A DNA stretch of 64,000 nucleotides from Candidatus Aenigmatarchaeota archaeon (lineage in GTDB: Archaea > Aenigmatarchaeota > Aenigmatarchaeia > QMZP01 > QMZT01): positions 64,001 to 128,000 of the forward strand of contig JAPLVC010000004.1 in the NCBI GenBank assembly GCA_026397315.1, given 5' to 3'. The notes under the pieces are model-generated. The model saw only the letters and a program-made list of their open reading frames with translations, was not told the DNA's origin and did no database searches. Of this stretch, positions 40,882 through 43,521 are shown one piece after another; within the stretch, counting starts at the first letter, position 1; each line of letters opens with the position of its first letter. The translations under genes and the position numbers were made by a program.

Positions 40882-42534
40882 ATGAAGAGAAAAGCCGGGA
40901 AAACCGTGACGCAGAAAAATAAAACAGAATCGCTAGCGAACGCCTCCAGCGGTTACGCAGGCGAGCTTCCACACAAAACGTCGTCAATATGCCCGGATTG
41001 CCTTAAAATTCTGCCGGCTCTCGTTTTCGAGGAGGGCGGCAAGGTCTGGATAGAGAAGACGTGTCCGAAGCACGGCAAGTTCCGCGAGATATACTGGAGC
41101 TCCGCCGAGATGTACAGGAAATCGAGGAAGTTCGCTTACGACGGGCATTCCATGGAAAACCCTAACGTAACCAAGGAAAACCCGACCTGCCCCAAAGACT
41201 GCGGCATCTGCTCGCTCCACAAGTCGCAGACGGCGCTGGCGAATCTCGTTGTCACGAACCGCTGCGATCTCAATTGCTGGTACTGTTTCTTCTTCGCGCA
41301 GAAGGCCGGCTATGTCTATGAGCCTTCCTTAGATGACCTGAGAAAGGCCGTGAAGCTCATGACCCGGCAGAAACCCGTTCCAGGCAACGCGGTGCAGCTT
41401 ACCGGAGGCAATCCCGAGCTCAGGGAGGACATACTGGACATAATAAAGATGATAAGAGACGAGGGAGTGGATCACATCCAGCTCAACATGAACGGCACGC
41501 ACAAGTTCTGGAACGACCCGGAATGGACCATGAAAGTCAGGGAAGCGGGCGTGAATACAGTTTACCTGTCGTTCGACGGCGTCACGCCCAAGAGCAACCC
41601 GAAGAACCATTACGAAATCCCGAACATGCTTCAGAACTCGAGGAAAGCCGGCATGGGCATAATACTCGTTCCCACCATAATCAAGTCCGTCAACGACAAC
41701 GAAGTCGGCGACATACTGCGCTTCGGCTTCAGGAACATGGACGTCGTGCGCGGAGTCAATTACCAGCCAGTTTCGCTGGTCGGCCGCATGCCCCGCAAGG
41801 AGCGCGATAAGTTCAGGGTAACCATTCCAGACGTCATACAAAGGATGGAAGAGCAGACGGATGGCCAGATAGTCAAGGAGGACTTCTACCCGGTCCCGAC
41901 CGTGAAGGCGATAACAGATTTCGTCGAGGCGCTTACTAAAAAGCCGCAATACTCGCTTTCGACCCACTTCGCCTGCGGCATGGCCACATACGTGTTCGAG
42001 AACGAAGGCAGAATGCTGCCCATCACACGATTCGTCGACGTCGAAGGATTACTGGAATACATCGAGGAGCAGGCCGGCGAACTGAACAAGGGACGGAGCA
42101 GATACATAATCGGCACCAAGATGCTGTTCAAGATGAATTCGTTCATCGACGGCAAACGCGCGCCGAAAGGCTTCTCGCTCGGCAACATGTTATACAACGC
42201 GCTGATGAAGCACGACTACCGTGCGCTTGGAGCGTTCCACCACAAATCGCTTTTCATCGGCATGATGCACTTCATGGATTTGATGAACTACGACATAGAA
42301 AGGGTAAAGAGATGTTGTATTCATTATTTGACACCCGAAGCGGTGATACCTTTCTGTGCGTTTAATGTTATACCGGAGATGTACAGAGACAAAGTTCAGA
42401 ATAAATATGCTATTTCTTTTAAAGAATGGGAAAAAATGACAGGCAAAACTCTTAAAAATGATTTATACAAAAGAGATATTGAAAAAATTAAAAATACGGA
42501 CTTGTACAGGAAAACCTACGAAGGCTTCTTGTAA
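40882..42534 (+). CDS. tes: Tetraether lipid synthase Tes / GDGT-MAS (MJ0619-family radical SAM)
   Basis: N-terminal CPDC...CPKHG, CPKDCGICSLHKS, TNRCDLNCWYCF, YQPVSLVGR, HFACG, MHFMD.MNYD.ERVKRCCIHY, IPFC: family pattern recalled from MJ0619. Confidence 0.85.
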   Translation: MKRKAGKTVTQKNKTESLANASSGYAGELPHKTSSICPDCLKILPALVFEEGGKVWIEKTCPKHGKFREIYWSSAEMYRKSRKFAYDGHSMENPNVTKENPTCPKDCGICSLHKSQTALANLVVTNRCDLNCWYCFFFAQKAGYVYEPSLDDLRKAVKLMTRQKPVPGNAVQLTGGNPELREDILDIIKMIRDEGVDHIQLNMNGTHKFWNDPEWTMKVREAGVNTVYLSFDGVTPKSNPKNHYEIPNMLQNSRKAGMGIILVPTIIKSVNDNEVGDILRFGFRNMDVVRGVNYQPVSLVGRMPRKERDKFRVTIPDVIQRMEEQTDGQIVKEDFYPVPTVKAITDFVEALTKKPQYSLSTHFACGMATYVFENEGRMLPITRFVDVEGLLEYIEEQAGELNKGRSRYIIGTKMLFKMNSFIDGKRAPKGFSLGNMLYNALMKHDYRALGAFHHKSLFIGMMHFMDLMNYDIERVKRCCIHYLTPEAVIPFCAFNVIPEMYRDKVQNKYAISFKEWEKMTGKTLKNDLYKRDIEKIKNTDLYRKTYEGFL

Positions 42535-43418
42535 GAATTTAGAATTTCTTCTAATTTTTCTGATCTCTTGGGATGTTTGAAACCGACAAGTCTTTGAAAT
42601 TTTTCTATTTCATCTCTTCCTGTAATATTTATGTAATACATATCATTCTTATTTTTTATGACAGAGTTTCTTATTTCTAACTCTTTGAGAATCTCTGAAA
42701 TACCTTCTGCCATTTTTCTGCTGGACGTGGCATAGTTTACAATTCTGAGGCCTTGTCTTTTAGTGTAAGCAACAGAACCATCTCCATCGAAACAACCACG
42801 CAAAAAGCATTTCTTGATTTCTATTGACGATTTTTTTATTTTTTCAGGCACTTTCACTATATCAAATTTTTTACCCTTTGGAATTCCTAATTCATGAAAA
42901 ATAGTTGATATGGTTTTGTTTTTTACATAAACCTGCATTTCATTTTTTTGATATATGTAAAAATTCTTATGGTTAAAAATTTTCTCTATGTTTTCCATGA
43001 AAATTGATCTTAGATGTTTTTGATTGTTTACAAATTCTACCCAAGCCAAGTTTTTGTCTATATGACCATCTGTTATTATCAATCCCATTAAATATGCCAG
43101 GTTCCCATCGATAGCAATGGGCAAACTTCTTTTAACAGGCAAACTTCCCTGCGCCGAGCCTATTCTAATGACTTTTACTTCTATCAATCGCGTGTCCATT
43201 TTAACACTCTCGTTTATTTTCAAAAGTGTTTTTACAGGTATCAAAAACTTACCGTTAAACCACCTGCTTACTGTGAATTGCCCTACTCCCAGATAACCAG
43301 CGAGCTTGTATTGGCTGCCAAAACTTACCAGTGCTTTGTTGAAAAACTCTTTTCTGAAGTTTTCTTCAAGCTCGACAGAAAGTTCGCTAATTTCATATAA
43401 ATTTAAGCAGTTTTCCAT
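42516..43418 (-). mobile_element. Free-standing homing endonuclease (N-terminal HTH + two LAGLIDADG motifs)
   Basis: SQYKLAGYLGVGQFTVSRW (HTH); LAYLMGLIITDGHI and FLRGCFDGDGSV; strongly AT-rich; no intein splicing termini. Confidence 0.88.
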
Positions 43419-43458
43419 GATATTATATGCACTTTTAGGACATATAAACAATTTTCAA

Positions 43459-43521
43459 CATGACATAGAAAGCATCAAGAAAAGCGAAGTCTACAAAAAG
43501 ACTTACGAAGGGTTCGTTTGA
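43459..43521 (+). pseudogene. Stranded original 3' end of tes
   Basis: HDIESIKKSEVYKKTYEGFV* versus current end RDIEKIKNTDLYRKTYEGFL*; host-like C-ending codons. Confidence 0.85.

Follow-up and report, generated by a model that had tools for sequence, protein, structure and literature searches.

A recently mobile, intron-less and probably homing cassette at the 3′ end of a tetraether lipid synthase gene in an Aenigmatarchaeota chromosome

In a chromosome of Aenigmatarchaeota, the gene for tetraether lipid synthase (tes) changes its codon usage shortly before its end and overlaps a convergent endonuclease gene, behind which lies a second copy of the last tes codons. This arrangement raises the question of whether the endonuclease is a chance neighbor or the driver of a replacement of the tes 3′ end. 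The window analyzed, i.e., the whole stretch of 64,000 nucleotides, lies on contig C4 of a 1.05-Mb DPANN genome (G000); the nearest relatives that carry this element bear the label Candidatus Aenigmatarchaeota. The locus very probably represents a real and recently mobile intron-less homing cassette, which supplies a foreign C-terminus and uses the stranded tes end (the relic) as a second homology arm, with the cutting and the immunity predicted from sequence. The preliminary description, which proposed an intron-less and intein-less homing element in an archaeal chromosome, is supported by a GC3 break restricted to occupied alleles and by a discontinuity in phylogeny or divergence that separates the 3′ part of tes from its 5′ part.

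The tes gene and its convergent endonuclease gene

The tes gene (40882-42534, plus strand) encodes a protein of 550 residues that matches NCBIfam model NF045702 with 701 bits (cut-off, 450); its residues 28-519 can be aligned to the M. jannaschii enzyme of known structure. Its maximum-likelihood GC3 change point was placed at codon 472 (position 42295, with near-equal solutions from 42271 to 42313), where GC3 falls from 0.74 to 0.33; the likelihood ratio of 45.9 exceeded the maximum of 23.4 reached in 2000 permutations, confirming the switch to A/T-ending codons that had been noted from about 42290. This break ranks 11th among 631 genes of G000, and the genes ranking above it are mostly long secreted or mosaic proteins or artefacts of ORF read-through. 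The terminal GC3 drops of topoisomerase VI-B and a RecJ-like gene in the same genome were considered as cassettes and rejected, as they apparently reflect read-through of the ORF into the next gene.

Codons 1-451 (40882-42234, plus strand) form the resident 5′ part of tes, with a GC3 of 0.74 and a dS to the congener G003 of 0.354, equal to the genome median. Codons 452-471 (42235-42294, plus strand) include the invariant G-x-M-H-F-x-D motif, retain host-like codons and have no mismatch to G003 from 42235 onward; about 19 host-like codons 5′ of the break thus also moved with the cassette, and this co-conversion flank is the putative left homology arm. The carried replacement end, codons 472-550 (42295-42534, plus strand; GC3 0.33, dS to G003 0.023), contains C478, Y482, and C492 and, as previously claimed, the motifs RCCIHY and PFC. 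When counted on the alignment, M462 and Y482 correspond to Met439 and Tyr459 of the M. jannaschii enzyme, and the replaced part starts right after the Met439 equivalent and contains invariant residues of the C-terminal region. Met439 is a labile ligand of the C-terminal cluster and Tyr459 is conserved, and the M439A and Y459F/L variants are still active (PMC9433317); therefore, neither M462 nor Y482 is claimed to be essential.

Divergent from tes, a GbsR/MarR-like wHTH gene occupies window positions 40270-40764 (minus strand), and such a gene adjoins tes in most inspected relatives from families f1, f2, f5, and f6, suggesting a dedicated regulator of tetraether synthesis. As a separate observation, long insertions interrupt the tes genes of L188 (G075) and G041 close to the cysteine motif of the radical SAM domain; they are probably inteins, in which case tes is attacked at a second and separate site.

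The convergent endonuclease gene (42516-43418, minus strand) overlaps the tes stop by 19 nt, as the preliminary description had stated, and its GC3 (0.33) is as low as that of the carried tes end. Its 300-residue product combines a weak HTH_3 match with two LAGLIDADG_3 stretches in Pfam, and both LAGLIDADG helices end in intact acidic residues (D117 and D213) that are invariant in five homologues and across the tes-linked clade. The AlphaFold model (pLDDT 90.5) has a pseudo-dimeric LAGLIDADG fold, and the top Foldseek matches are intein and intron endonucleases, including I-Tsp061I and I-DmoI (E-values down to 7e-12). With a dN of 0.012 and a dS of 0.095 between G000 and G003 (dN/dS 0.13), the endonuclease is under purifying selection. 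The gene is free-standing: it lies on the strand opposite to tes, which is uninterrupted, Pfam detected no intein domain, and Rfam and tRNA scans gave no match. MCM inteins contain the same HTH-LAGLIDADG module, as do many free-standing proteins, and a viral contig search returned no close relative, the best viral matches being at most 29% identical. In the leader (43419-43461, minus strand), a TATA-like TTTATAT is located at 43448-43442, 23 nt before the ATG; the leader motif is kept in four diverged homologues and the TATA-like box in G000, G003, and G018, suggesting a probable archaeal promoter belonging to the endonuclease itself (a sigma-70 promoter scan is not suited to archaea).

Outside the window, G000 contains further LAGLIDADG ORFs (C6:158945-159832, C3:148731-149510, C7:138749-139489, C3:152917-154659, and C1:57528-58169), among which are ORFs that precede metK and trm1, a fusion with another domain and an ORF whose GC3 is host-like; the metK ORF itself lacks its N-terminus in the ORF call. 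Also outside the window, a tyrosyl-tRNA synthetase-like ORF (C6:56494-57780; gene GC3 0.75) has about 90 internal in-frame codons with a GC3 of 0.2-0.3, possibly an insert or intron.

Recent transfer of the cassette between species

A tes end was present in 134 of the 371 genomes searched, and in 4 of these 134 the endonuclease lies beside it: G000 and G003 (same genus), G018 (another genus), and G094 (another family), with one metagenome contig as a further such locus. All five occupied tes genes have a 3′ part of lower GC3. In the four full-length ones, the strongest GC3 break is a drop within codons 467-472, immediately behind the invariant MMHFxD motif (likelihood ratios 49, 52, 41, and 12), and in the fifth, partial locus GC3 falls from 0.82 to 0.57. 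In line with the preliminary description, the GC3 comparison places this break in occupied alleles only (none of 43 aligned empty loci at codons 467-472). Most relatives possess tes. The expected gene order was likewise recovered, since empty relatives have tes followed directly by tsaC, within about 60 bp in several members of the same family; FEN1 follows tes in other families. At the occupied locus of G000, which is flanked by tsaC, TBP, and leuS, tsaC (43580-44152, plus strand) could serve as an alternative right homology arm. On a Logan contig (L052:1034-1939), an enzyme of the tes clade lies beside FEN1 with no adjacent tes and was probably orphaned from a tes-FEN1 locus. The endonucleases recorded behind tes in L175 and L185 were discarded as weak, spurious matches.

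The two congeners G000 and G003 are 87.7% identical over 225 kb. Between them, dS is 0.354 for tes codons 31-451 and 0.346 for tsaC, as compared to 0.023 for codons 472-550 and 0.095 for the endonuclease (Fisher p 1e-6 and 1e-10), the latter being the lowest value among 168 orthologues (median 0.35; 5th percentile 0.197). The longest perfect run between the two genomes (290 bp) lies inside the cassette, with no mismatch from 42235 to 42524. The cassette was recently transferred between these ~88% identical species, and its patchy distribution is accompanied by lateral spread with co-conversion. Elsewhere in the window, ftsZ (7544-8587) is also unusually similar to its G003 counterpart (dS 0.13), reflecting either strong constraint or recent exchange.

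Metagenome alleles extend this picture. A single contig of run X4 (depth 13) joins 42551 to 43453, so that only the endonuclease is missing, while the relic and the cassette sequence immediately behind the tes stop are retained; on the strength of this one contig, the allele is the decay stage expected for homing elements. Over 43453-43666 it has five differences, four of them from 43592 onward inside tsaC, and it is about 9% divergent beyond; since divergence resumes inside tsaC, the downstream gene can also serve as a homology arm. Short contigs in runs X2 and X3 contain near-identical cassette pieces with more diverged flanks, and run X1 carries the whole stretch without a difference, being possibly the source of G000 and not independent.

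The origin of the carried end is clearest in G018. The 5′ part of its tes is 88% identical to that of a congener (SH-aLRT 100 in a quick tree), whereas the 3′ part is 60% identical to the congener and 80% identical to a genome of another family, with which it shares a one-residue insertion. The AU test rejected sisterhood with the congener for the G018 3′ part (p 0.003) as well as monophyly of all carried ends (p 0.001), although the tree of this 85-residue part is weak and monophyly of family f1 was not rejected (p 0.087). As the carried ends are not monophyletic, the cassette swaps its cargo, taking ends from the hosts it has passed through. In the tree, the end carried in G000 falls on a long branch within its own genus, and none of the 371 genomes offered a close donor (best empty allele, 80%); it derives from either an unsampled low-GC donor or AT drift during passage, which are indistinguishable here. 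Thus, the break between tes 5′ and 3′ parts that had been anticipated is seen in the G003 dS values and the G018 tree comparisons, and a foreign in-frame C-terminus completing the host gene is clear in G018, while in G000 there is recent transfer and a composition break. The description of the C-terminus as "recoded" is not established by these data: the G018 end is a foreign homologue from another family, and the two origins of the G000 end are inseparable.

These data also bear on a competing explanation, in which ordinary homologous recombination or horizontal transfer moved a tes end together with a passenger nuclease gene, with no nuclease drive. In its favor, the two species are ~88% identical and other short near-identical tracts occur between them (260 bp on C5). 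However, the breakpoint falls within the same six codons in three distant lineages that have different carried ends and enzymes only 45-52% identical to each other, the tes-linked enzymes form one tes-specific clade (UFBoot 100), and relics occur only where the enzyme is present, rendering undirected recombination very unlikely.

The relic, the predicted target and the proposed homing route

The relic (43462-43521, plus strand) comprises codons 532-550 of the native tes end and the stop, and is the probable right homology arm. A second copy of about 20 codons had been reported here; the copy is present, but it starts at 43462 instead of 43459 and spans 19 codons plus the stop. With a Tes-end profile built from empty relatives, the relic scored 63.7 and the real end 65.7, as compared to 27.4 for the next best place in the 1.05 Mb. 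The host-like codon usage ascribed to the relic exists as a modest tendency, with 11 of 19 codons G/C-ending and +6.1 bits versus −3.9 for the matching codons of the new end. The relics in G000, G003, and G018 consist of the last 15-19 codons only, and the profile recognized none at G094 or at empty tes loci.

Between G000 and G003, 8 of the 60 relic nucleotides differ, yet a single amino acid is altered and the stop is intact (P ≤3e-4 under neutral change). Because these changes are mostly silent and the stop is retained, the two relics diverged as working tes ends and were therefore stranded separately, after the species split, which in turn places the right crossover inside the relic, in the first ~17 bases shared by G000 and G003. 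The G018 relic is shorter and similar to the end of tes in the empty congener, and the same genus-specific radical SAM gene follows both; this pattern agrees with a repair in which the donor's relic is paired with the end of the recipient's gene.

Both cassette junctions, at 42292 and 43462, carry an 11-bp exact repeat, which could mean that the locus is what is left of an integrase-driven element, integrated at an att site in tes, that restored the 3′ end and brought the nuclease as cargo. Integrative elements typically restore the end of their target gene. Nevertheless, no integrase or other gene is found within the 1.2 kb, the relic corresponds to the last 19 codons rather than to the sequence following the left junction, the repeat encodes the same tripeptide at both places, and the right junction of G018 is different and lacks the repeat, making such an element even less probable than undirected recombination. 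A target-site duplication was considered for the repeat and rejected; it may instead mark a microhomology deletion of native codons 471-531.

For the homing cassette, the predicted recognition and cut region spans codons ~461-473 (42262-42300, plus strand), and the GC3 break follows the most DNA-conserved stretch of this region (Met, His, Phe, and Asp codons). Codon 468 encodes Met in the occupied G000 allele and mostly Tyr in empty alleles, with Met468 in 0 of 51. At codons 467-470, where the consensus of empty alleles is L-Y-N-Y, all four independent occupied ends read differently (LMNY, KFNF, KFNY, and KYNL), and across codons 466-471, 1, 0, 7, and 0 of 51 empty alleles are equally atypical. 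However, L-Y at 467-468 is also missing from 20 of the 51 empty alleles, two of which have K-F, while three of the four occupied ends share Lys467 and may share ancestry, and many codon spans were tried. The signal is modest, and the substitutions at codons 467-470 probably protect the occupied allele.

The following route is proposed. The cassette, ~1.2 kb and self-contained, consists of the tes 3′ end from the MMHFxD motif, the convergent HTH-LAGLIDADG gene and its own probable promoter. On meeting cassette DNA, an empty tes allele would be cut by the enzyme near codons 461-473, and repair would pair on the left in conserved tes sequence and on the right with the donor's short tes-end relic or with whichever shared gene comes next (tsaC in G000, FEN1 in other families). 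Native codons ~472-531 of the recipient would be lost and the carried end added in frame, keeping Tes whole, and the recipient's own last 15-20 codons would become the new relic; substitutions in the carried end would then spare the occupied allele. Later, the endonuclease may be lost while the foreign end remains.

Least probable is a domesticated, host-beneficial gene acting as a WhiA-like DNA-binding regulator or by antisense control of tes, for which one could cite the HTH at the N-terminus, the weak matches to WhiA in profile and structure searches and the purifying selection, but which disagrees with the retention of both catalytic aspartates, the patchy occurrence (4 of 134 tes-bearing genomes), the recent transfer with the lowest dS, and the deletion of the gene in a close relative (X4), as domesticated LAGLIDADG regulators of the WhiA type have lost catalytic residues and are vertically inherited.

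Enzymes linked to pelota and to thrS form separate clades related to the tes-linked clade. At pelota (L213:1518-3623 and L212), the endonuclease gene converges on the end of pelota and overlaps it by 18 nt, and upstream of the L213 enzyme lies a relic comprising the last ~12-15 codons of pelota; no GC3 break is evident at the pelota locus. At thrS (L034/L193 and L147), the gene is preceded by an endonuclease that has an additional domain at its C-terminus, and the N-terminal ~125 residues of the thrS product are encoded with low GC3 and are 74% identical between genomes of two families but 39-50% identical to empty alleles. The thrS 5′ end is foreign, in a layout mirrored relative to tes, as also seen at alaS; no relic was found at these thrS loci. 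At alaS (L151), a short copy of the alaS start (1143-1187) is followed by a small gene and an endonuclease and then by alaS (2614 onwards). In addition, both topA and the proteasome alpha gene are repeatedly found with a free-standing HTH-LAGLIDADG gene immediately upstream (L148, L158, and L161; L153, L162, and L166), and the proteasome alpha ORF beside the endonuclease apparently lacks its usual start in the frame calls.

A broader proposition, which could with equal chance hold or fail, is that DPANN chromosomes harbor a wide class of splicing-free homing cassettes, each enzyme clade being tied to one conserved gene in a 3′ type (tes and pelota) or a 5′ type (thrS and alaS). The relic would be a working homology arm renewed at each invasion, allowing homing regardless of gene order, and domain-sized enzyme ends would have moved between families. 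The tes cassette would be a homing route in archaeal chromosomes that needs neither intron nor intein. It documents recent gene conversion across DPANN species boundaries (~88% identity) and even across families; chimeric marker and lipid-synthesis genes such as tes and thrS can mislead phylogenies. The case also narrows down the target of a new LAGLIDADG specificity and gives the stranded gene ends of such cassettes a concrete role.

Comparison with known systems

No paper on such cassettes in archaea or archaeal chromosomes was found in a literature search that reached few subscription papers, and novelty is thus unproven. Intronless homing of T4-like phages, the parallel drawn in the preliminary description, shares several features with the tes cassette, but the closest system is the fungal mitochondrial mORF hybrids and not the seg/mob enzymes. 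Phage enzymes such as T4 SegF, SegG, and MobE, and F-CphI (PMC2988022, PMC13565253), likewise involve neither intron nor intein, a presumed cut in a neighboring conserved gene at some distance from the endonuclease gene, self/non-self discrimination by substitutions (here predicted), and co-converted flanks. In contrast, the phage enzymes are of the GIY-YIG, HNH or EndoVII type, operate between phages that infect the same cell and depend on conserved genes to either side, whereas the tes-linked enzyme is a LAGLIDADG protein in a cell chromosome, with chromosomal flanks, and its cassette carries a duplicate of the target end.

Archaeal two-motif LAGLIDADG endonucleases (the TliVMA intein, PI-PfuI, I-Tsp061I, I-DmoI, and those of MCM inteins) have the same fold and motifs as the tes-linked enzyme; unlike these, the latter has no splicing element, and tes is rescued by replacement. 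Free-standing homing-type endonucleases also occur in another archaeal genome context, namely the LAGLIDADG_2 genes of Haloferax glycosylation islands, proposed as drivers of gene conversion; the accessible part of that source describes no target gene, replaced terminus or relic (PMC5867893).

The fungal mORF gene hybrids comprise atp6 of Allomyces macrogynus; atp6, atp9, cox2, and nad3 of Glomus sp.; atp9 of Rhizopus; and cox2 of Mortierella (PMC3630166), with Ophiostoma rps3 as a further case cited in PMC4019555. There, as at tes, a foreign in-frame C-terminus and an endonuclease ORF are brought in, and the native C-terminus is left downstream, where it groups with the host's relatives (here in G000, G003, and G018). 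The tes cassette differs in that it resides in an archaeal chromosome, its endonuclease is antisense with its own probable promoter instead of being co-transcribed or in phase, and ~60 native codons have been deleted, with 15-20 remaining. Beyond what these hybrids show, the present case provides evidence that every invasion renews the relic, a breakpoint common to the occupied alleles from which the target is predicted, and an allele that has lost the endonuclease.
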